DNA from: Escherichia coli
GTDB lineage: Bacteria; Pseudomonadota; Gammaproteobacteria; Enterobacterales; Enterobacteriaceae
NCBI RefSeq assembly: GCF_046105845.1
Contig: NZ_CP151004.1
Direction: 5' to 3' (one strand)
Length of the DNA stretch: 64,000 bases
In this document: positions 10,689 through 19,865 of the stretch, piece after piece
Layout: the number at the start of each line of letters is the position of its first letter
Numbering within the stretch: the first letter of the stretch is position 1
Made by a program: the position numbers and the translations under genes
Notes under the pieces: generated by a model
Databases searched by the model: none
Told to the model about the DNA's origin: nothing
The model's input: only the letters and a program-made list of their open reading frames with translations

Positions 10689-12167
10689 TTACGCATTCGA
10701 CCAGCTCTGGATCGAATCTTCATTCCCCAATTCCCCATGCATCACTTCATACGATTTTTTCAGGATCACATCAGTGTGTTTGGTTAGGTCTTTGAAAATG
10801 CCTTTATTCATCGCGTCGTAGCGTTTGGCGTTGCTCTCAACAGGCATAAAGATATCTTTCACGCGAACCATTTTGTCGACAGCCGTTGCGTAATCCGGGT
10901 ATAGCCCCAGACCTACCGCCGTATTAATCGCTGCCCCCAGGCTTGCACAACCATTAATGGCGTTACGGCGTGCCGGAAGGTTGAACACGTCGGCAAAAAT
11001 CTGCATAAACAGATCGCTGTTCGAACCGCCGCCAGTAATGATCACATGCTTTGCAAAGTGATTCATTTCATTACACATATTGTCGTAATTGTTCTTCAGC
11101 GTCAGCGCCACGCTTTCCAGTATCGAACGATATATCCATGCGTAATCCATGCTGGAATCAAAGCCGATCATAATCCCGCGTTTGTACGGTTCCCACGGAT
11201 TGGTCAGCCAGTCCAGCACCGTCATCAGACCATTACAGCCAGGCGGCACACAAGACGCTTTTTTGTTGAGCAAATCTTCCGGTGAAAGATCCTGTGCTTT
11301 GGCATCCTGAATTAACGACTCGCCTAACATGTCGCGTAGCCAGCTCACCGTCCACATGCCTTTGCGGATACCGTAACCTTCATACAGCAAGGTTTGTGGA
11401 ATAGAAGACATAATCGGCCAGTACGCTACCGGATCTTTCGGCAGTGCTTTGCCGTTCATCATCAACGCGATGTAAGTGCCAAGAGAAATTACCGCAGTTT
11501 CATCATCCAGTAACCCGGCTCCCAGTGCTTCTACCGGTTTATCACTGGTGGTACAAACAACCGGCAGCCCAGCCGGGAAATGTGTAGCCAGCGCGGCTTG
11601 AGGAGTGATATGCCCAAGAACAGTGCCCGGCATTTGCACATCAAACAGCATATGACGGGGGATATTAAACTTCTCCATGACTGCGGCATCTTCACTCCAT
11701 GCCCAGGTCTTATAATCCACCGGCCACTGACCAAAATAGTTGGCGATATTGTCTTTAAACTCGCCGGTTAAGCGATGCGTCAGATAACCTGAAAAAGAGG
11801 TGACATATGCCACGTCAGGATTCGTATGTTCGTAAGGGCGTGTAACGCGTGCATCCTGCCAGCTAATCAACGGCGCAGCTGGCGTGCCATCGGCTTTCAA
11901 TAACGCACGGCAGCAACGGATGGATCCCAGACCAATACCGACAATATCTTCTTTATTTCCGGCAAACTGACTCATCAAATCGTGACCGGCAAAACATAAT
12001 GATGCCCATAAATCGTCGTCAGGATGTTCTGCGGTATCGGCATCTGGCGTGTGCATCGGCTGTAATAAGCCTTTGCCTTCGCAAACCACGTTACCTTCCA
12101 GATCGTACATCACCACTTTTGTGCTCTGACTTCCGCCATCAATCCCTATGATGTATTTTTTCGACAT
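10689..12167 (-). CDS. ygcE: FGGY-family carbohydrate kinase
   Basis: 492-aa ORF MSKKYIIGIDGGSQSTKVVMYDLEGN..., FGGY kinase N- and C-domains. Confidence 0.85.
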   Translation of the reverse strand: MSKKYIIGIDGGSQSTKVVMYDLEGNVVCEGKGLLQPMHTPDADTAEHPDDDLWASLCFAGHDLMSQFAGNKEDIVGIGLGSIRCCRALLKADGTPAAPLISWQDARVTRPYEHTNPDVAYVTSFSGYLTHRLTGEFKDNIANYFGQWPVDYKTWAWSEDAAVMEKFNIPRHMLFDVQMPGTVLGHITPQAALATHFPAGLPVVCTTSDKPVEALGAGLLDDETAVISLGTYIALMMNGKALPKDPVAYWPIMSSIPQTLLYEGYGIRKGMWTVSWLRDMLGESLIQDAKAQDLSPEDLLNKKASCVPPGCNGLMTVLDWLTNPWEPYKRGIMIGFDSSMDYAWIYRSILESVALTLKNNYDNMCNEMNHFAKHVIITGGGSNSDLFMQIFADVFNLPARRNAINGCASLGAAINTAVGLGLYPDYATAVDKMVRVKDIFMPVESNAKRYDAMNKGIFKDLTKHTDVILKKSYEVMHGELGNEDSIQSWSNA

Positions 12168-12193
12168 GATTTTTCTCCTGTAATTTTCTGGAC

Positions 12194-13471
12194 TTACTTG
12201 CTGCTAGCCATAGCAGGGGCGCTATCAGCAGTACGAATTTTTTGGAACAGCAAAAAGGTAAAGACGATCACCATGGCAAGCGCCGCCATGCCCATCAGCC
12301 ACATATTGCGGTAGGCTTCTGCAGCGGGCAGGGTGTCTTGCCAGTAGCCGATAATCGGGTAAACGAAGACATCCGGCAGGAATCCAATCACCGAACAAAT
12401 ACCTACCGTGGTGCCCATAATGTAAGACGGTGTTCTCGCTTCGCCAGGGCAGGCCCAGTACAGCCCGCGTGAGGCGTAACAGGTGAATCCCAGCAGTAAA
12501 ATCAGGCCAATCCCCATCGCGACCGATTGCGGGTTAGAGTTCGTGACGAGCAGGGCAGTTAACGCCAGCAAGCCGAGTACGGAAAGGATTTGGATCACGC
12601 GGGTAGGGGATTTCACTTTGCTGTAGGTGGTGATAATGCCACCAAGTGGGCCGCACAGCGCGCGGAAGATTTTGTTGATCACAATCCCCATGTAGCTCGC
12701 CGCCACCAGCGACATGCCGTACATTTCGGTCAGATAGTTGGTGGAGTAACTCAGAATGGCGTAGATGGTGAAGACACCAAAAATCACCATGCTGCAATAC
12801 CAGGTGGTTCTGATGCGCAAAACGGCCAGGATGTCGCTAAGCTGGAATGAATGTTTTTCTTCGTTATTGGTATTGCGCAGGTTGTTGTTATCGCTGACAA
12901 AAAACCAACACAAAATGCCCAGCAGAATGTAAACCACACTATAGATAATAATGACCGTTTTCAGGCTGGCGCTGTCATCCGGTGCAAAGCGAGAAAAGAC
13001 CCACATGGTAAACACCGCCAGCGACATTACACCGACGCCGCGCAGCCCTTCCATCCAGCCCATAATTTTCCCTTGCTCGCTATGATCGCCCAGCAACGAT
13101 GCGGCTTTAATCGACACCGACCACAGCATTAAAATCGTCGTTATCGCAAAGGCGACCTGAATACAGAGCATTACCCACAGCGGTGGATATGTTGCCATTA
13201 ACAGACCCAGTAATCCGGTAATGATCATCGCGGAAGTAATCATTTTGCGGTGTGAAAATTTATCGGCAATAACGCCGCTGGGGGCATAAAGAATAATAGC
13301 CGCAATACCAAAGGTACTCATTATTAAACCTATCTCGGTATTGCTGAATCCCATAAATTTCGCCATGGGAATTTGATAAATATAACGTAAATAAGCCAGG
13401 TCGAAACTAACGCCGCCGCTAAAACTAATTATCGCGAGGGTTATCCAACGGCGATATGAGTTGTGTTGCAT
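12194..13471 (-). CDS. yqcE: MFS transporter
   Basis: 425-aa ORF with about 12 hydrophobic segments; immediately upstream of ygcE on same strand. Confidence 0.8.
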   Translation of the reverse strand: MQHNSYRRWITLAIISFSGGVSFDLAYLRYIYQIPMAKFMGFSNTEIGLIMSTFGIAAIILYAPSGVIADKFSHRKMITSAMIITGLLGLLMATYPPLWVMLCIQVAFAITTILMLWSVSIKAASLLGDHSEQGKIMGWMEGLRGVGVMSLAVFTMWVFSRFAPDDSASLKTVIIIYSVVYILLGILCWFFVSDNNNLRNTNNEEKHSFQLSDILAVLRIRTTWYCSMVIFGVFTIYAILSYSTNYLTEMYGMSLVAASYMGIVINKIFRALCGPLGGIITTYSKVKSPTRVIQILSVLGLLALTALLVTNSNPQSVAMGIGLILLLGFTCYASRGLYWACPGEARTPSYIMGTTVGICSVIGFLPDVFVYPIIGYWQDTLPAAEAYRNMWLMGMAALAMVIVFTFLLFQKIRTADSAPAMASSK

Positions 13472-13495
13472 ATCGTATTCCCATTTGTAATAGAC

Positions 13496-13543
13496 AAAAA
13501 AAAGAGAAAAGTAAGCCGCCCTTTCAGGTGGATTACTTTTCTC
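13496..13543 (-). terminator. leader hairpin + T8 run upstream of yqcE
   Basis: Minus-strand reading: stem GAGAAAAGTAA / TTACTTTTCTC (11 bp perfect), 18-nt loop, then TTTTTTTT (13496-13503), 24 nt before yqcE ATG. Confidence 0.6.
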
Positions 13544-13592
13544 AGGTCTCTAGTAATTGCAATAAGAAATAACATGGAAAGCAGTGGTGTTG

Positions 13593-13608
13593 TGTGAGAG
13601 TAATCACG
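13593..13608. promoter_or_regulatory. CRP-like binding site (TGTGA-N6-TCACG)
   Basis: TGTGAgagtaaTCACg in divergent yqcE/ygcW control region. Confidence 0.5.
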
Positions 13609-13649
13609 CTTCTGCTTTTTAAAATTATTTGACAATTCGAATATCACAC

Positions 13650-13665
13650 TGTGATTACGATCACA
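13650..13665. promoter_or_regulatory. CRP-like binding site (TGTGA-N6-TCACA)
   Basis: Perfect consensus half-sites TGTGAttacgaTCACA; about 20 bp upstream of a TATGAT -10-like hexamer. Confidence 0.6.
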
Positions 13666-13719
13666 TTAGCGATTATGCCCTTATGATAAAAATTATCTCC
13701 AGTTACCAGAGATAATGAG

Positions 13720-13766
13720 AAAGGTAACTTCCCTCTCGCGGGGGAAGTTACCTTTCTTTTTTTTTG
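13720..13766 (+). terminator. leader hairpin + T9 run upstream of ygcW
   Basis: Stem AAAGGTAACTTCCC / GGGAAGTTACCTTT (14 bp perfect), 8-nt loop, then CTTTTTTTTT; 23 nt before ygcW ATG; upstream AGTTACC segment could pair with the stem as an alternative structure. Confidence 0.65.
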
Positions 13767-13789
13767 CCTTACGGAAATTGGAGCTAACT

Positions 13790-14575
13790 ATGTCAATCGA
13801 ATCTCTCAATGCGTTCTCAATGGATTTTTTCTCCCTGAAAGGTAAAACCGCAATTGTTACCGGCGGGAATAGCGGTTTAGGCCAGGCATTTGCCATGGCG
13901 CTGGCCAAAGCAGGCGCAAATATCTTTATTCCAAGCTTCGTTAAAGATAACGGAGAAACAAAGGAAATGATTGAAAAACAGGGTGTTGAGGTGGACTTCA
14001 TGCAGGTGGATATCACCGCAGAAGGCGCGCCGCAGAAGATAATCGCCGCCTGTTGCGAACGTTTCGGTACCGTCGATATTCTGATTAACAATGCCGGTAT
14101 TTGTAAGCTGAATAAGGTGCTGGACTTCGGTCGTGCCGACTGGGACCCGATGATTGATGTGAACCTGACCGCCGCATTCGAGTTAAGCTATGAAGCGGCA
14201 AAAATTATGATCCCGCAGAAAAGCGGTAAAATCATTAATATCTGTTCATTGTTCTCTTACTTAGGTGGACAATGGTCACCTGCTTATTCTGCCACTAAAC
14301 ATGCTCTTGCCGGATTCACCAAAGCCTATTGCGATGAATTAGGTCAATATAATATTCAGGTGAATGGTATTGCTCCGGGATATTACGCTACCGATATCAC
14401 TCTGGCGACCCGTAGTAATCCAGAAACTAACCAGCGCGTTCTTGATCATATTCCGGCAAACCGTTGGGGCGATACTCAGGATTTAATGGGCGCAGCCGTA
14501 TTCCTCGCAAGTCCGGCATCGAATTATGTCAACGGACATTTATTAGTGGTTGATGGCGGTTATTTAGTGCGCTAA
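13790..14575 (+). CDS. ygcW: short-chain dehydrogenase/reductase
   Basis: 261 aa from MSIESLNAFSMDFFSLKGKTAIVTGGNSGLGQ (Rossmann TGxxxGxG), catalytic YxxxK present. Confidence 0.85.
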   Translation: MSIESLNAFSMDFFSLKGKTAIVTGGNSGLGQAFAMALAKAGANIFIPSFVKDNGETKEMIEKQGVEVDFMQVDITAEGAPQKIIAACCERFGTVDILINNAGICKLNKVLDFGRADWDPMIDVNLTAAFELSYEAAKIMIPQKSGKIINICSLFSYLGGQWSPAYSATKHALAGFTKAYCDELGQYNIQVNGIAPGYYATDITLATRSNPETNQRVLDHIPANRWGDTQDLMGAAVFLASPASNYVNGHLLVVDGGYLVR

Positions 14576-14644
14576 TCCATAACGGTGGTTTCTGTTTTCT
14601 CTTATTAATGATTATTCCATTTTTATTATCAGGAAGGAATTACT

Positions 14645-16099
14645 ATGTCTTTATCTCGCGCAGCGATTGTCGACCAGCTAAAGGAAATTGTTGGTGCAGA
14701 TCGCGTAATTACCGATGAAACAGTATTAAAGAAAAACAGTATTGACCGTTTTCGTAAATTTCCGGATATTCATGGTATTTATACTTTGCCGATTCCGGCA
14801 GCGGTCGTAAAACTCGGTTCCACAGAACAAGTCTCCCGTGTGCTGAATTTTATGAATGCGCACAAAATTAACGGTGTGCCGCGTACCGGCGCTTCCGCCA
14901 CTGAAGGTGGGCTGGAAACCGTTGTGGAAAACTCGGTGGTGCTCGACGGCTCCGCCATGAATCAAATCATTAATATTGATATTGAGAATATGCAGGCCAC
15001 GGCGCAATGTGGTGTTCCGCTGGAAGTGCTGGAAAACGCGTTGCGTGAAAAAGGTTACACCACGGGGCATTCTCCGCAGTCAAAGCCGCTGGCGCAGATG
15101 GGCGGCCTGGTAGCAACCCGCAGTATCGGGCAGTTCTCCACACTCTACGGCGCAATCGAAGATATGGTCGTTGGTCTGGAAGCGGTACTGGCAGATGGCA
15201 CCGTAACACGCATTAAAAACGTACCACGCCGCGCGGCAGGCCCGGACATTCGCCACATCATCATCGGCAACGAAGGTGCATTGTGCTATATCACTGAAGT
15301 AACAGTGAAAATCTTTAAGTTCACCCCGGAAAACAACCTCTTCTACGGCTATATCCTGGAAGACATGAAAACCGGCTTCAACATCCTGCGTGAAATCATG
15401 GTGGAAGGGTATCGTCCGTCGATCGCTCGTTTGTATGACGCTGAAGATGGCACCCAACACTTCACCCATTTTGCCGATGGTAAATGTGTGCTGATCTTTA
15501 TGGCTGAAGGTAACCCTCGCATTGCGAAGGCGACAGGCGAAGGGATTGCGGAAATCGTGGCACGTTACCCGCAATGCCAGCGAGTGGACAGCAAGCTGAT
15601 CGAAACCTGGTTTAATCACCTGAACTGGGGGCCGGATAAAGTGGCCGCTGAACGTGTGCAGATCCTCAAAACCGGCAACATGGGCTTTACCACCGAAGTG
15701 TCCGGCTGCTGGAGCTGCATCCACGAAATCTACGAAAGCGTTATTAACCGTATTCGTACCGAGTTCCCGCACGCCGACGACATCACCATGCTGGGCGGTC
15801 ACTCCTCTCACAGCTACCAGAACGGCACCAACATGTACTTCGTTTACGACTACAACGTTGTTGACTGTAAGCCGGAAGAGGAAATCGACAAGTACCACAA
15901 TCCGCTCAACAAAATCATCTGCGAAGAAACCATTCGCCTCGGCGGTTCGATGGTGCACCACCACGGTATTGGTAAACATCGCGTTCACTGGAGCAAACTG
16001 GAACACGGCAGCGCGTGGACGTTGCTGGAAGGTCTGAAAAAACAGTTCGATCCTAACGGCATTATGAATACGGGTACTATCTATCCGATTGAAAAATAA
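14645..16099 (+). CDS. ygcU: FAD-linked oxidase (GlcD-like)
   Basis: 484-aa ORF with FAD-binding PCMH-type domain features. Confidence 0.8.
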   Translation: MSLSRAAIVDQLKEIVGADRVITDETVLKKNSIDRFRKFPDIHGIYTLPIPAAVVKLGSTEQVSRVLNFMNAHKINGVPRTGASATEGGLETVVENSVVLDGSAMNQIINIDIENMQATAQCGVPLEVLENALREKGYTTGHSPQSKPLAQMGGLVATRSIGQFSTLYGAIEDMVVGLEAVLADGTVTRIKNVPRRAAGPDIRHIIIGNEGALCYITEVTVKIFKFTPENNLFYGYILEDMKTGFNILREIMVEGYRPSIARLYDAEDGTQHFTHFADGKCVLIFMAEGNPRIAKATGEGIAEIVARYPQCQRVDSKLIETWFNHLNWGPDKVAAERVQILKTGNMGFTTEVSGCWSCIHEIYESVINRIRTEFPHADDITMLGGHSSHSYQNGTNMYFVYDYNVVDCKPEEEIDKYHNPLNKIICEETIRLGGSMVHHHGIGKHRVHWSKLEHGSAWTLLEGLKKQFDPNGIMNTGTIYPIEK

Positions 16100-16191
16100 T
16101 ATGTCAGGCAGCGTTCCGCTATGAGGGGCGTTGCCTTTTCGGCTTCTCAGGCGAGAAGCCGTTCTTATTACCGGACAATGAAGGGGTAAAG

Positions 16192-17529
16192 ATGAACACT
16201 TCACCGGTGCGAATGGATGATTTACCGCTTAACCGTTTTCACTGTCGAATTGCTGCGCTCACTTTCGGCGCGCACCTGACCGACGGTTATGTTCTCGGCG
16301 TCATTGGTTACGCCATTATTCAGCTTACACCCGCCATGCAACTGACGCCGTTTATGGCGGGAATGATTGGCGGCTCAGCACTCCTTGGTTTGTTTCTTGG
16401 CAGCCTGGTTCTGGGCTGGATCTCCGACCATATTGGGCGACAAAAAATCTTCACCTTCAGCTTTTTGCTGATTACGCTTGCTTCGTTTTTACAATTTTTT
16501 GCCACCACGCCAGAGCATCTTATTGGACTGCGCATTTTGATTGGCATTGGTCTGGGAGGCGATTACTCAGTCGGTCACACCTTGCTGGCTGAATTTTCCC
16601 CGCGCCGCCATCGCGGTGTTTTGCTGGGCGCATTCAGCGTAGTGTGGACGGTGGGCTATGTGCTGGCAAGCATTGCCGGACATCACTTTATTAGCGAAAG
16701 CCCGGAGGCCTGGCGCTGGCTGCTGGCATCGGCAGCTCTGCCCGCATTGTTGATTACGTTATTACGCTGGGGAACGCCAGAATCGCCACGCTGGCTACTG
16801 CGCCAGGGGCGTTTTGCAGAAGCTCACGCTATCGTGCATCGCTATTTTGGTCCCCATGTTTTACTGGGCGATGAAGTGGCAACGGCGACCCATAAACACA
16901 TCAAAACCTTGTTCTCTTCGCGCTACTGGCGGCGCACGGCGTTTAACAGCGTCTTCTTTGTCTGCCTCGTAATCCCATGGTTTGTGATTTATACCTGGCT
17001 GCCAACTATCGCCCAGACTATTGGTCTGGAAGATGCGTTGACTGCCAGCCTGATGCTTAATGCGTTGTTAATTGTGGGTGCGCTGCTGGGATTAGTTCTG
17101 ACGCACCTGCTGGCACATCGCAAATTTTTGCTGGGAAGTTTTTTGCTGCTGGCGGCAACGCTGGCAGTGATGGCTTGTTTGCCTTCCGGCAGTTCATTAA
17201 CGCTGCTGCTTTTTGTTCTCTTCAGCACCACCATTTCGGCAGTCAGTAATCTGGTGGGCATTTTGCCTGCGGAAAGTTTTCCTACTGACATTCGCTCGCT
17301 GGGCGTCGGTTTTGCCACCGCCATGAGTCGACTTGGCGCGGCGGTAAGTACTGGCCTGCTGCCGTGGGTGCTGGCGCAGTGGGGAATGCAAGTCACCTTA
17401 TTGCTCCTGGCGGCAGTGTTGTTGGTTGGTTTTGTTGTGACCTGGCTATGGGCACCAGAAACCAAAGCACTCTCGCTGGTGGCGGCGGGAAATGTAGGAG
17501 GTGCGAATGAACATTCTGTTAGCGTTTAA
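16192..17529 (+). CDS. ygcS: MFS sugar-porter-type transporter
   Basis: 445-aa ORF, 12 predicted hydrophobic segments, MFS motifs. Confidence 0.8.
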   Translation: MNTSPVRMDDLPLNRFHCRIAALTFGAHLTDGYVLGVIGYAIIQLTPAMQLTPFMAGMIGGSALLGLFLGSLVLGWISDHIGRQKIFTFSFLLITLASFLQFFATTPEHLIGLRILIGIGLGGDYSVGHTLLAEFSPRRHRGVLLGAFSVVWTVGYVLASIAGHHFISESPEAWRWLLASAALPALLITLLRWGTPESPRWLLRQGRFAEAHAIVHRYFGPHVLLGDEVATATHKHIKTLFSSRYWRRTAFNSVFFVCLVIPWFVIYTWLPTIAQTIGLEDALTASLMLNALLIVGALLGLVLTHLLAHRKFLLGSFLLLAATLAVMACLPSGSSLTLLLFVLFSTTISAVSNLVGILPAESFPTDIRSLGVGFATAMSRLGAAVSTGLLPWVLAQWGMQVTLLLLAAVLLVGFVVTWLWAPETKALSLVAAGNVGGANEHSVSV

Positions 17530-18286
17530 AGCCGAACCGGATGCCGGAATGCTGGCGGAAAAAGAGTGGCAGGCGGCGGCTCAGGGTAATAGCGGACCGG
17601 ATGTTTCGCTTCTGCGAAGTTTACTCGGTGCTGATGAACAGGCTGCCGCCGCGCTGCTGTTGGCGCAGAGAAAAAACGGTACGTCGATGTCTTTAACCGC
17701 GTTGAGCATGGGGGATGAACGGGCGTTGCACTGGCTGCGCTATCTCATGGCCCTTGGGTTTGAGGAAGCTGTATTGCTGGAGACAGCGGCAGATCTGCGC
17801 TTTGCGCCGGAATTTGTCGCTCGCCATATTGCCGAATGGCAGCGTCAGAATCCGCTGGATCTGATAATTACCGGCTGCCAAAGCAGCGAAGGGCAGAATG
17901 GGCAAACGCCATTTTTGCTGGCGGAAATGCTGGGCTGGCCCTGCTTCACCCAGGTGGAGCGTTTCACTCTCGACGCGCCGTTTATCACCCTCGAACAGCG
18001 TACTGAACATGGGCTGCGCTGTTGCCGGGTTCGCTTGCCTGCGGTGATTGCCGTGCGCCAGTGCGGTGAAGTGGCCTTGCCAGTACCGGGAATGCGCCAG
18101 CGAATGGCGGCGGGGAAAGCAGAAATTATCCGTAAAACTGTTGCTGCCGAATTGCCAGCGATGCAGTGTCTGCAACTGGCAAGAGCAGAGCAACGACGCG
18201 GAGCGAGGCTGATTGATGGGCAAACGGTAGCAGAAAAAGCGCAAAAGCTATGGCAGGACTATTTACGCCAAAGGATGCGGCCATGA
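17507..18286 (+). CDS. ygcR: electron transfer flavoprotein beta-subunit-like (FixA-like)
   Basis: 259 aa from MNILLAFKAEPDAG...; ETF-beta-like start; overlaps ygcS end. Confidence 0.75.
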   Translation: MNILLAFKAEPDAGMLAEKEWQAAAQGNSGPDVSLLRSLLGADEQAAAALLLAQRKNGTSMSLTALSMGDERALHWLRYLMALGFEEAVLLETAADLRFAPEFVARHIAEWQRQNPLDLIITGCQSSEGQNGQTPFLLAEMLGWPCFTQVERFTLDAPFITLEQRTEHGLRCCRVRLPAVIAVRQCGEVALPVPGMRQRMAAGKAEIIRKTVAAELPAMQCLQLARAEQRRGARLIDGQTVAEKAQKLWQDYLRQRMRP

Positions 18287-19143
18287 ATATCGCAATTGTG
18301 ACAATAAATCAGGAGAATGCCGCAATAGCGAGCTGGCTGGCGGCGCAGGATTTCAGCGGTTGTACCCTGGCGCACTGGCAGATTGAACCTCAGCCCGTAG
18401 TGGCGGAACAGGTGCTGGATGCGCTGGTGGAACAGTGGCAGCGAACGCCTGCGGACGTTGTTCTCTTTCCGCCGGGAACGTTTGGCGATGAACTGTCGAC
18501 CCGGCTGGCCTGGCGTTTACATGGTGCAAGCATCTGCCAGGTGACTTCGTTAGATATTCCAACCGTAAGCGTGCGCAAATCCCACTGGGGAAATGCGCTA
18601 ACGGCGACGCTGCAAACAGAAAAACGCCCGCTATGCCTTTCCCTGGCGCGTCAGGCGGGAGCAGAGAAAAACGCCACGTTGCCCTCTGGTATGCAGCAAC
18701 TGAATATTGTCCCGGGTGCGCTTCCCGACTGGCTGGTTAGCACAGAGGATCTGAAAAATGTTACCCGCGACTCATTAGCTGAAGCCAGACGGGTGCTGGT
18801 GGTGGGGCAGGGCGGAGAGGCAGATAACCAGGAAATCGCTATGCTGGCAGAAAAGCTGGGAGCCGAAGTGGGCTACAGTCGGGCGCGAGTGATGAACGGT
18901 GGCGTTGATGCTGAAAAAGTGATTGGTATTTCCGGACATTTGCTGGCACCTGAGGTGTGTATTGTTGTTGGCGCTTCCGGCGCAGCAGCGTTAATGGCGG
19001 GCGTACGCAATAGCAAGTTTGTGGTGGCGATTAATCATGACGCCAGCGCGGCGGTATTTTCACAGGCAGATGTTGGCGTGGTTGATGACTGGAAAGCGGT
19101 GCTGGAGGCACTGGTGACAACCATTCACGCAGATTGCCAATAA
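18283..19143 (+). CDS. ygcQ: electron transfer flavoprotein alpha-subunit-like (FixB-like)
   Basis: 286 aa from MNIAIVTINQEN...; ETF-alpha C-terminal FAD-binding region; overlaps ygcR. Confidence 0.75.
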   Translation: MNIAIVTINQENAAIASWLAAQDFSGCTLAHWQIEPQPVVAEQVLDALVEQWQRTPADVVLFPPGTFGDELSTRLAWRLHGASICQVTSLDIPTVSVRKSHWGNALTATLQTEKRPLCLSLARQAGAEKNATLPSGMQQLNIVPGALPDWLVSTEDLKNVTRDSLAEARRVLVVGQGGEADNQEIAMLAEKLGAEVGYSRARVMNGGVDAEKVIGISGHLLAPEVCIVVGASGAAALMAGVRNSKFVVAINHDASAAVFSQADVGVVDDWKAVLEALVTTIHADCQ

Positions 19144-19149
19144 CGTGCT

Positions 19150-19262
19150 GCCGGATGATCCTGCCTACGGTTCTGGGCTGGGGACTTGTAAGCCTGATAA
19201 GACGCGTCAAGCGTCGTATCAGGCGCTGAATGTCGGATGTGGCGTGCAGCCTACAAAGCACA
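19150..19262. repeat. REP/BIME-like palindromic units
   Basis: GCCTGATAAGACGCG...CGTCGTATCAGGC imperfect palindromes and CGGATG motifs between convergent ygcQ and ygcP. Confidence 0.6.
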
Positions 19263-19289: not shown

Positions 19290-19865
19290 TCAAAGCAATT
19301 TTTTCGCTAACGTCCAGACCCCGGTATTCGTGGTGGAAAGCGCCACAACACCCGCGTTAATCGCATTACGCGCATCTTCTTCATCGCACACCAGCCCGCC
19401 GGCAATCAGCGGTTGGCGGATTTTCTCCGTCACCCAGCCCAGCACTTTAGGCATACAGCCTGGCAGGATCTCAATACAATCCGGATTCGATTGCGCAACT
19501 TGCTTATCAATGTTGTGAAACGAAATTGAATCAACAATAAACAGGCGATGAATACAGAAAAAACCTTCCGCTCTTGCCGCTTTCAACATTGAGGCTTTGG
19601 TACTGATAATGCCGTCCGCCTCAGTCACCAGTTTCAAAAACTGAATCACCACTTCTTTATTTGACGCGCCTTCCAGCAAATCAACATGAATAAAAGCATA
19701 TTTTCCGGCATTTTTAATCTTTTTAACGATTTGACTAATGGTGCAGATATTGCCGTACAACACGGAAATAAACTGGCATTCAGAGTCGATTGCCAGTTGC
19801 AGGCTGGCATTATCTTTAACGGCAGCAATCACCGGATTCTGGCGGAGCAGGTGTAAGAGGGGCAT
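19290..19865 (-). CDS. ygcP: GlpP-family putative RNA-binding transcription antiterminator
   Basis: 191-aa ORF MPLLHLLRQNPVIAAVKDNASLQLAIDSE..., GlpP-like. Confidence 0.75.
   Translation of the reverse strand: MPLLHLLRQNPVIAAVKDNASLQLAIDSECQFISVLYGNICTISQIVKKIKNAGKYAFIHVDLLEGASNKEVVIQFLKLVTEADGIISTKASMLKAARAEGFFCIHRLFIVDSISFHNIDKQVAQSNPDCIEILPGCMPKVLGWVTEKIRQPLIAGGLVCDEEDARNAINAGVVALSTTNTGVWTLAKKLL

Follow-up and report, generated by a model that had tools for sequence, protein, structure and literature searches.

We report here on the spacer between the divergent genes ygcW and yqcE in a 64,000-nucleotide stretch of an Escherichia coli genome (contig NZ_CP151004.1; "the window" below means that whole stretch). 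Each of the two genes is preceded by a short leader RNA that ends in an intrinsic terminator, and we propose that the operons they head are governed by GlpP-type antitermination, a control system that is known from Bacillus and is not described for E. coli in the literature searched. More specifically, CRP would activate both promoters, termination in the leaders would be the default, and ligand-bound YgcP, a GlpP-family protein encoded in the same cluster, would stabilize an antiterminator hairpin in each leader; we put the probability of this reading at roughly three in four. Both the proposal of this mechanism for ygc, the first for E. coli, and the definition of the RNA motif appear to be new. 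The initial annotation of the spacer had suggested catabolite activation plus YgcP-dependent antitermination for both ygc operons and had added that this was not known to be described for the locus. The co-occurrence of the leader motif with ygcP and its likeness to the Bacillus subtilis glpD leader support the suggestion, the YgcP and activation parts being those that we infer. The added remark also holds in the literature searched, where no paper ties ygcP to the ygcW and yqcE leaders.

The spacer is 318 bp long (13472-13789) and of equal length in E. coli K-12, from which it differs at 7 positions, none of them within either hairpin. The leader RNAs and their terminators are the following.

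13697..13766, + strand: ygcW leader RNA, ~70 nt, corresponding to ecr2774 (covariance-model match at 13699-13765, 82.6 bits)
13496..13559, - strand: yqcE leader RNA, ~64 nt, corresponding to ecr2775 (covariance-model match at 13497-13560, 71.1 bits)
Stem 13717-13758 and T9 13757-13765, + strand: intrinsic terminator of the ygcW leader (terminator scan and folding)
Stem 13543-13504 and T8 13503-13496, - strand: intrinsic terminator of the yqcE leader (folding)

The two hairpins had been noticed in the initial annotation as a 14-bp stem followed by T9 before ygcW and an 11-bp stem followed by T8 before yqcE, and both are present as described. The ygcW terminator has a perfect 14-bp stem (AAAGGTAACTTCCC/GGGAAGTTACCTTT), or 19 pairs over 13717-13758 when G-U pairs are counted, with a folding energy of -30.6 kcal/mol (z = -8.9; 0 of 200 shuffles as stable). 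The yqcE terminator has a perfect 11-bp stem (GAGAAAAGTAA/TTACTTTTCTC, 13543 down to 13504) and reaches -20.5 kcal/mol (z = -5.5; no shuffle as stable). The distance from terminator to start codon is 23 nt on the ygcW side (from 13766 to the ATG at 13790, +) and 24 nt on the yqcE side (ATG at 13471, -).

Premature Rho-independent termination in both leaders is already in the published record, where it stands without interpretation, and the termination that the initial annotation predicted is thereby shown. Romero et al. (2014) list ecr2774, a 73-nt RNA upstream of ygcW and on the same strand, in their Table S5, together with the 63-nt ecr2775 upstream of yqcE, which was confirmed by northern blot, and class both as "simple extended stem-loop, perhaps REP-like" (PMC4681348). 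Converted to window coordinates, ecr2774 runs from ~13697 to the T run of the + strand and ecr2775 from ~13558 to that of the - strand, and both lengths, derived from RNA sequencing (RNA-seq), fit termination in the T run. The conversion from U00096.2 to U00096.3 used an offset of ~1978 bp and leaves ~2 nt of uncertainty in the 5' ends. In addition, the Term-seq data of Adams et al. (2021, supplementary file 3) hold a 3' end 38 nt upstream of ygcW with 40,640 reads (Rho score 0.50, intrinsic-terminator score 15.8) and another 36 nt upstream of yqcE with 1,557 reads (Rho score 0.61, intrinsic score 11.4), neither of them Rho-dependent (PMC7815308). These ends lie at genome coordinates 2900311 (-) and 2900556 (+), neither with an annotated regulatory element (PMC7815308), and correspond to window positions 13752 in the ygcW leader and 13507 in the yqcE leader.

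The same data can be read as evidence that ecr2774 and ecr2775 are stand-alone, trans-acting small RNAs (sRNAs) whose own terminators are the hairpins, the downstream genes being served by their own promoters or by leaky read-through. Both RNAs were indeed listed as candidate sRNAs (PMC4681348), and the read count at the ygcW leader speaks of strong accumulation. The gap of 23-24 nt between terminator and start codon, however, leaves no room for a separate promoter. Moreover, the RNA motif defined below is always found 5' of ygc transcription units, including operon-internal sites in Clostridium and Sporomusa, and its conserved terminator/antiterminator alternative speaks for action in cis. 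We therefore regard independent sRNAs as decidedly unlikely. The two views are compatible, since leaders released by termination might in addition titrate YgcP or work in trans.

Each leader can also form a second, smaller hairpin that competes with its terminator.

13701..13729, + strand: ygcW antiterminator, AGUUACC (13701-13707) paired with GGUAACU (13723-13729) (minimum-free-energy fold and covariation)
13532..13557, - strand: yqcE antiterminator, AUUACU (13557-13552) paired with AGUAAU (13537-13532), loop AGAGACCUGAGAAA (minimum-free-energy fold)

The ygcW pairing had been proposed in the initial annotation as an antiterminator alternative; the pairing stands, and only the position given for its upstream strand (about 13702-13708) was one base off. 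The equivalent pairing in the yqcE leader had been overlooked, and its presence in both leaders indicates that they are homologous copies of one motif. The loop of the ygcW hairpin (AGAGAUAAUGAGAAA, 13708-13722) is the proposed binding site of YgcP. When the nascent RNA was folded up to the 3' arm of the terminator, the antiterminator was the minimum-energy structure in both leaders (-6.7 kcal/mol for ygcW, -1.4 kcal/mol for yqcE). An antiterminator that is far weaker than the terminator is what would be expected of a default-off attenuator in need of a stabilizing factor.

Comparison across species points in the same direction. We collected 65 loci around YgcP homologues from species-representative genomes and aligned the 125 nt preceding each of the genes ygcW and yqcE from ~50 species. 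Since the MAFFT alignment (A1) misaligned the GTTACTG-NNN-GAG variants, a subset was rebuilt as A2; a third, model-based alignment (A3) was fitted to the terminator only. The antiterminator helix is 94.6% paired in A2 and 94.9% in A3, versus 16-56% when the partner strand is slid. Compensatory changes were found at three of its pairs (G-C to A-U, C-G to U-A, and A-U to G-C). The G-C to A-U change, seen in the yqcE copy, concerns a base that the terminator mostly leaves unpaired and is thus specific to the antiterminator, and the A-U to G-C change of L027 affected the upstream strand and both terminator arms at once. Further variants of the helix occur in Listeria (GUUGC/GCGAC), Faecalibacterium (GUUUC/GAAAC) and Sporomusa (AAUUAC/GUAAUU), the last of which has the yqcE-type A-U variant independently. 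The terminator helix is 91.6% paired, with double changes at 8 pairs, and was recovered independently by RNAalifold. We regard this covariation as supportive, not conclusive; it backs both of the mutually exclusive helices, terminator and antiterminator.

Two further candidates in the ygcW leader were rejected. A leader peptide starting at ATG 13715 (13715-14575, +) would be in the ygcW frame and run through the hairpin, adding 25 codons, and is not conserved in other genera. A hairpin at 13692-13716 (ATTATCTC/GAGATAAT) was considered as an anti-antiterminator, but its 5' half precedes the mapped RNA 5' end and lacks conservation too.

From these alignments a single leader pattern emerged. An extended -10 element (TGnTA) is followed ~12 nt on by (A)GUUAC(Y), or AAUUAC in the Escherichia-type yqcE copy, and the motif continues with AGAGA, a 2-4-nt spacer, (U/A)GAGAAA(A/G)GUAAC, a variable upper stem, UUACYUUUCUC, and U7-9. 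The antiterminator loop thus comprises 13-15 nt carrying GAGA...GAGAAA, and its 3' strand GUAAC doubles as the start of the terminator stem. Loop purines and lower stem are the same throughout, and changes in the upper stem are compensated. A covariance model (R1) built on 40 leaders found exactly two matches in the window, namely the two leaders listed above, and none elsewhere in it. In 36 of 36 further complete Enterobacterales loci it likewise found exactly two matches, always in the ygcW-yqcE spacer. Leader conservation, which the initial annotation had suggested comparing as a check, extends over ~48 Enterobacterales species with two copies per locus, and we take the two E. coli leaders to be paralogous copies of one RNA motif.

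Conservation is also high within E. coli. The 1.3 kb around the spacer match 5077 of 5426 complete genomes, in which ygcW is annotated as a short-chain dehydrogenase/reductase (SDR) and yqcE as a major facilitator superfamily (MFS) transporter; RefSeq annotates nothing at the ygcW leader. Of 5063 E. coli genomes that carry this leader (67 nt), 4870 (96%) have it at an identity of at least 99%; the ygcP coding sequence reaches this identity in only 91 of 5115 (<2%). The leader is more conserved than the coding sequence, which we take as selection.

Given their shape, the hairpins might be constitutive structural or repetitive extragenic palindromic (REP)-like elements, i.e., insulators or mRNA-stability elements without regulated read-through. 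The class to which Romero et al. assigned them, and the A tract before and T tract after the lower stem, which resemble those of bidirectional terminators, would fit such a role. As a REP-like or otherwise repeated element, however, the candidate was rejected, as BLAST found the locus alone (median, 2 places per genome); each locus, and each E. coli genome, has exactly two copies and no repeats elsewhere. Conservation of the unpaired GAGA loop and of the upstream strand equals that of the stem, the position relative to the promoter is fixed, and a constitutive terminator of -30 kcal/mol placed 24 nt before the first gene would permanently silence the operon. We consider a purely structural role extremely improbable.

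A conserved leader with mutually exclusive folds and no matching Rfam family could also be a protein-independent riboswitch that senses a metabolite directly. An Rfam scan of the window region in E-value mode gave rliE as its best match, at 26 bits versus a gathering score of 90, and a scan of five Firmicute loci in gathering mode returned tRNAs only. The sensor, however, would comprise only a hairpin of 4-8 bp with a purine-rich loop of 13-15 nt and would be far smaller than known aptamers. In addition, a PF04309 gene always co-occurs with the motif, and the homologous B. subtilis glpD leader requires GlpP (PMC9604022). A riboswitch of this kind is, in our view, highly improbable.

Individual loci show further variation. 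In Limnobaculum eriocheiris (L032:13886-13951) the spacer is only 130 bp long and holds a single hairpin between A9 and T9, which matches the leader model in either orientation (52.9 and 43.2 bits), and both promoters and both CRP sites are absent, as if two inverted leader copies had recombined. Citrobacter youngae (L010:16320-16470) and Klebsiella spallanzanii (L012:12666-12816) have ~127 extra bases between the yqcE terminator and the start codon, an insert that may be an enterobacterial repetitive intergenic consensus/intergenic repeat unit (ERIC/IRU) element. Upper stems and loops, which otherwise vary freely between species, are identical in the two inverted leader copies of a locus in Limnobaculum allomyrinae (L034) and Budvicia diplopodorum (L041), and this suggests gene conversion between inverted paralogues.

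The case for YgcP as the factor that acts on the leaders starts from its family. YgcP matches PF04309 over its full length (model positions 1-173 of 173, E = 1.6e-62), which bears out its earlier assignment to the GlpP family. It is similar to the Listeria GlpP structure 3kts (E = 8.5e-28, 100 bits) and far closer to the PF04309 proteins of Firmicute ygc clusters (55-62% identity, at least 234 bits). The glpD 5' untranslated region (UTR) of B. subtilis reads ...ACGGUCC-UGAGA-UGAG-GAGA-GACCACAGC... and runs into a terminator (sequence from PMC9604022, Table S4). Its layout, i.e., a helix strand, NGAGA, a spacer, GAGA, and a complementary strand that starts the 5' arm of the terminator, matches that of the ygc leaders by eye. 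The GlpP dependence of the glpD terminator is established (PMC9604022), and PMC10573289 likewise gives it, citing Glatz 1996 and Rutberg 1997. Furthermore, ygcP is found together with homologues of ygcW, ygcU, ygcE and yqcE in every lineage examined, among them all Enterobacterales, in three gene arrangements, as well as Thalassobacillus, a species of Bacillus, and Listeria sensu lato.

Outside Enterobacterales, the covariance model matched at the following loci.

Thalassobacillus (L060), 58.9 bits: before ygcW, which diverges from ygcP
Bacillus sp. DNRA2 (L061), 31.7 and 25.0 bits: before ygcW and before ygcU
Five Listeria species (L056-L059, L063), about 21 bits: before an operon ygcU-ygcP-yqcE-ygcW-ygcE
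Vibrio hannami (L067), 58.2 and 55.0 bits: both copies in a spacer between divergent SDR and FGGY genes
Clostridium sediminicola (L068), 50.6 and 57.6 bits: before the SDR gene, and in the gap from the FGGY to the FAD-oxidase gene
Sporomusa (L069), 38.3 and 38.0 bits: before the SDR gene, and before a BCCT transporter gene

The Vibrio, Clostridium and Sporomusa loci were chosen independently of the covariance model. Taken with the Enterobacterales, the motif accompanies ygcP homologues in four bacterial classes. Two Clostridia have a related leader (24-30 bits) between a glpP homologue and a gene resembling glycerol-3-phosphate dehydrogenase/oxidase. Some copies lie within gene strings, i.e., at L068:7269-7329 between the FGGY kinase and FAD-oxidase genes and at L069:18128-18188 before the BCCT transporter gene, which indicates that the element also serves as an attenuator inside operons or between them.

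These distributions bear on the view that the leaders are real conditional attenuators with a factor other than YgcP, be it another protein, translation by the ribosome, or the sensing of nucleoside triphosphates or temperature. YgcP would then be an enzyme-like protein or a regulator of something else, which would agree with the TIM-barrel-like fold of PF04309 proteins (PDB 3kts, 1vkf) and with the location of ygcP in a different operon lacking the motif. Against this, motif and ygcP homologues stay together through several rearrangements across the four classes, and the glpD leader, for which GlpP dependence is genetically established (PMC9604022), shares the architecture. As to translation in particular, there is no conserved leader peptide, ATG 13715 not being conserved. 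We judge it unlikely that a factor other than YgcP is responsible.

Several points nevertheless weigh against antitermination by YgcP. Binding of YgcP to the leaders and YgcP-dependent read-through are what we infer by analogy, and the comparison of glpD with ygc concerns one sequence, read by eye. The literature searched holds no functional study of ygcP or of other ygc genes and names no inducer. The ygcP gene itself lies ~5.5 kb off in a separate operon, ygcNOP, without the motif. On the RNA side, the yqcE antiterminator is very weak alone (-1.4 kcal/mol), and the compensatory changes represent few independent events, ~3-4 for the antiterminator, as paralogous copies are not mutually independent. 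RNA 5' ends and start sites carry ~2 nt of uncertainty from the conversion between genome versions. The Term-seq ends are 13-14 nt short of the end of the T run and inside the lower stem, where the GC-rich upper stem meets the A-U lower stem; this offset would be most simply explained by 3' trimming, and a second RNA species could also account for it. Finally, the glpP-glpK-type locus of Anaerococcus (L066) gave no significant match to the motif; it has GA-rich leaders with terminators, whose likeness to the motif is uncertain.

The first of the two proposed layers of control lies in the promoters, whose elements are the following.

13650..13665, centre 13657.5: CRP site 1, TGTGATTACGATCACA, class II site of the ygcW promoter (perfect consensus match)
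13593..13608, centre 13600.5: CRP site 2, TGTGAGAGTAATCACG, class II site of the yqcE promoter (9 of 10 half-site matches, one mismatch)
13684..13692, + strand: extended -10 element of ygcW, TG-a-TAAAAA (TGnTA kept in all species)
13574-13566, - strand: extended -10 element of yqcE, TG-t-TATTTC (conservation, and a geometry relative to CRP site 2 that matches the ygcW side)

Both CRP palindromes of the initial annotation are thus present, with centres 57 bp apart, site 1 being perfect and site 2 having one mismatch. The 64-kb window has only 4 consensus matches with at most one mismatch, where chance would give 1.45, and the spacer sites account for two of these. From each centre to the start of the extended -10 hexamer the distance is exactly 29.5 nt, a spacing that would put CRP at -41.5 for starts 7 nt past the hexamer, i.e., at 13699 and 13559, and these predicted starts are within 1-2 nt of the published RNA 5' ends (~13697 and ~13558). 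Neither promoter has a -35 element; on the ygcW side this is because the CRP site overlaps that position.

This architecture is conserved as well. TGnTA sits 16-18 nt 5' of the motif anchor in all species examined, and on both sides the distances from the RNA motif to TGnTA and to a CRP-like site (8-10 of 10 half-site matches) are fixed in ~48 species. On the yqcE side the site has 9-10 of 10 matches and a constant offset in all species examined. Site 1 was predicted by PhyloScan in 2007, is occupied by CRP in vivo according to chromatin immunoprecipitation sequencing (ChIP-seq) in enterotoxigenic E. coli (PMC4287617), and is listed as a novel site by Footprint-seq, with an estimated in vitro dissociation constant (Kd) of 1.7 nM (PMC12871828); the published binding data found, from ChIP-seq and footprinting, concern site 1 only. 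Geometry and conservation make the class II placement suggested in the initial annotation well supported, and together with the published binding at site 1 they suggest that CRP would activate both promoters.

Collectively, we propose the following course of events. cAMP-CRP would turn on the two back-to-back class II promoters, which would fire only with cAMP-CRP. Each transcript would start almost directly with its copy of the motif, and the weak antiterminator hairpin would fold first. The 3' strand of this hairpin and GAGAAA would then be drawn into the stabler terminator (-30.6 and -20.5 kcal/mol), and transcription would by default stop ~24 nt before the start codon and release a leader RNA of ~64-70 nt. 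This default-termination step is backed by the published RNA-seq, northern blot and Term-seq data. With inducer present, YgcP would bind the GAGA-containing hairpin and stabilize it, the terminator would be blocked, and RNA polymerase would read into yqcE-ygcE and ygcW-ygcQ; this step draws on the GlpP/glpD paradigm and on the co-occurrence of motif and protein. The FGGY kinase YgcE is conserved in the cluster, and the inducer is presumably its phosphorylated product, by analogy with glycerol-3-phosphate and GlpK.

The genes concerned are arranged as follows in the window.

13790..19143, + strand: operon ygcW-ygcU-ygcS-ygcR-ygcQ, encoding an SDR, an FAD oxidase, an MFS transporter, and the beta and alpha subunits of an electron transfer flavoprotein (ETF) (open reading frames, K-12 annotation, gene order)
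10689..13471, - strand: operon yqcE-ygcE, encoding an MFS transporter and an FGGY kinase (open reading frames, K-12 annotation)
19290..19865, - strand: ygcP, PF04309 (GlpP family), proposed trans-acting antiterminator (profile match)

Side observations were made at three places in this region. The spacer 13472-13789 was reported as bound by RpoD holoenzyme alone and marked as H-NS-associated (Shimada et al. 2014, PMC3946193), and H-NS silencing may be a further layer of its control. The gap between ygcU and ygcS contains a 9-bp GC-rich hairpin (CGGCTTCTC...GAGAAGCCG, 16140-16161, +) with a T-poor tail, a candidate for partial termination or for RNA processing inside the operon. The convergent spacer between ygcQ and ygcP (window 19150-19240) holds REP-like palindromes (GCCTGATAAGACGCG...CGTCGTATCAGGCG, together with GCCGGATG and TGTCGGATG motifs).

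A cluster of SDR, FAD oxidase, ETF subunits, FGGY kinase, transporter and PF04309 regulator is common to Gammaproteobacteria and Firmicutes. Protein identity is unusually high, with 76-78% for YgcW between E. coli and Listeria and 55-62% for YgcP, and speaks for a horizontal transfer in which regulator and RNA motif travelled with the cluster. We further postulate, with slightly more confidence than an even chance would warrant, that the two leaders are the founding Gram-negative examples of an uncatalogued, cross-phylum class of cis-regulatory RNA, here termed "GlpP-RAT", which would be cognate to PF04309 proteins generally and consist of a 4-8-bp hairpin with a 13-15-nt GAGA...GAG(A) loop overlapping a terminator. 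If so, the pair of regulator and RNA would have moved horizontally with a whole catabolic cluster between Firmicutes and Gammaproteobacteria, E. coli would have a second protein-mediated antitermination system besides Bgl, and the abundant terminated leaders may also titrate YgcP or act in trans.

For E. coli itself, our proposal would provide YgcP, an orphan regulator that the K-12 annotation calls no more than a "putative anti-terminator", with targets and a mechanism. It would also account for two uncharacterized premature-termination sites and two "candidate sRNAs" in published transcriptome maps, as well as for a very strong CRP site before seemingly silent genes. The compact and portable GlpP-family motif, absent from Rfam, may be used to predict GlpP-family regulons in many bacteria, and fusions of the leaders to reporters would offer a handle on the substrate of the widely conserved ygc catabolic cluster.

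Among known systems, the closest is GlpP of B. subtilis, which acts on glpD, glpFK and glpTQ in a glycerol-3-phosphate-dependent manner. As with ygc, a PF04309 regulator is combined with intrinsic terminators in the 5' UTRs of catabolic operons, and the glpD and ygc leaders share their architecture (helix strand, NGAGA, N3-4, GAGA, complementary strand). Catabolite control is joined to antitermination in both, through CcpA at glpFK and, in our proposal, CRP at ygc. The two differ in their genes (SDR, FAD oxidase, ETF, FGGY kinase and MFS transporters versus glpF, glpK, glpD, glpT and glpQ), in the sequence of the helix (GUUAC/GUAAC versus GGUC/GACC) and probably in their inducer. In addition, the ygc host is Gram-negative, and its two inverted paralogous leaders flank one divergent promoter region, unlike in the GlpP system.

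The antiterminators BglG of E. coli and SacY and LicT of B. subtilis, which act on the ribonucleic antiterminator (RAT), resemble the ygc proposal in that a protein stabilizes a small antiterminator overlapping the 5' arm of a terminator, and the target is again an operon for sugar catabolism, with additional CRP control in E. coli. However, they are unrelated CAT-PRD proteins governed by phosphorylation through the phosphotransferase system (PTS), their RAT differs from the ygc motif in sequence and structure, and the ygc cluster has no PRD or PTS component. HutP at the hut leader and TRAP at the trp leader of B. subtilis recognize repeats of short purine-containing triplets (UAG or GAG) and in this way govern an overlapping terminator, and the ygc loop has two conserved GAG(A) repeats; both are unrelated oligomeric ring proteins that bind many repeats, and TRAP promotes termination. 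With respect to the promoters, galP1 (class II, extended -10) has CRP centred at -41.5 over the -35 region, paired with TGn, with the same distance of 29.5 nt from the CRP centre to the start of the hexamer as in the ygc promoters. Unlike the galP1 type, ygc combines two back-to-back promoters, with CRP centres 57 bp apart and an attenuator after each.

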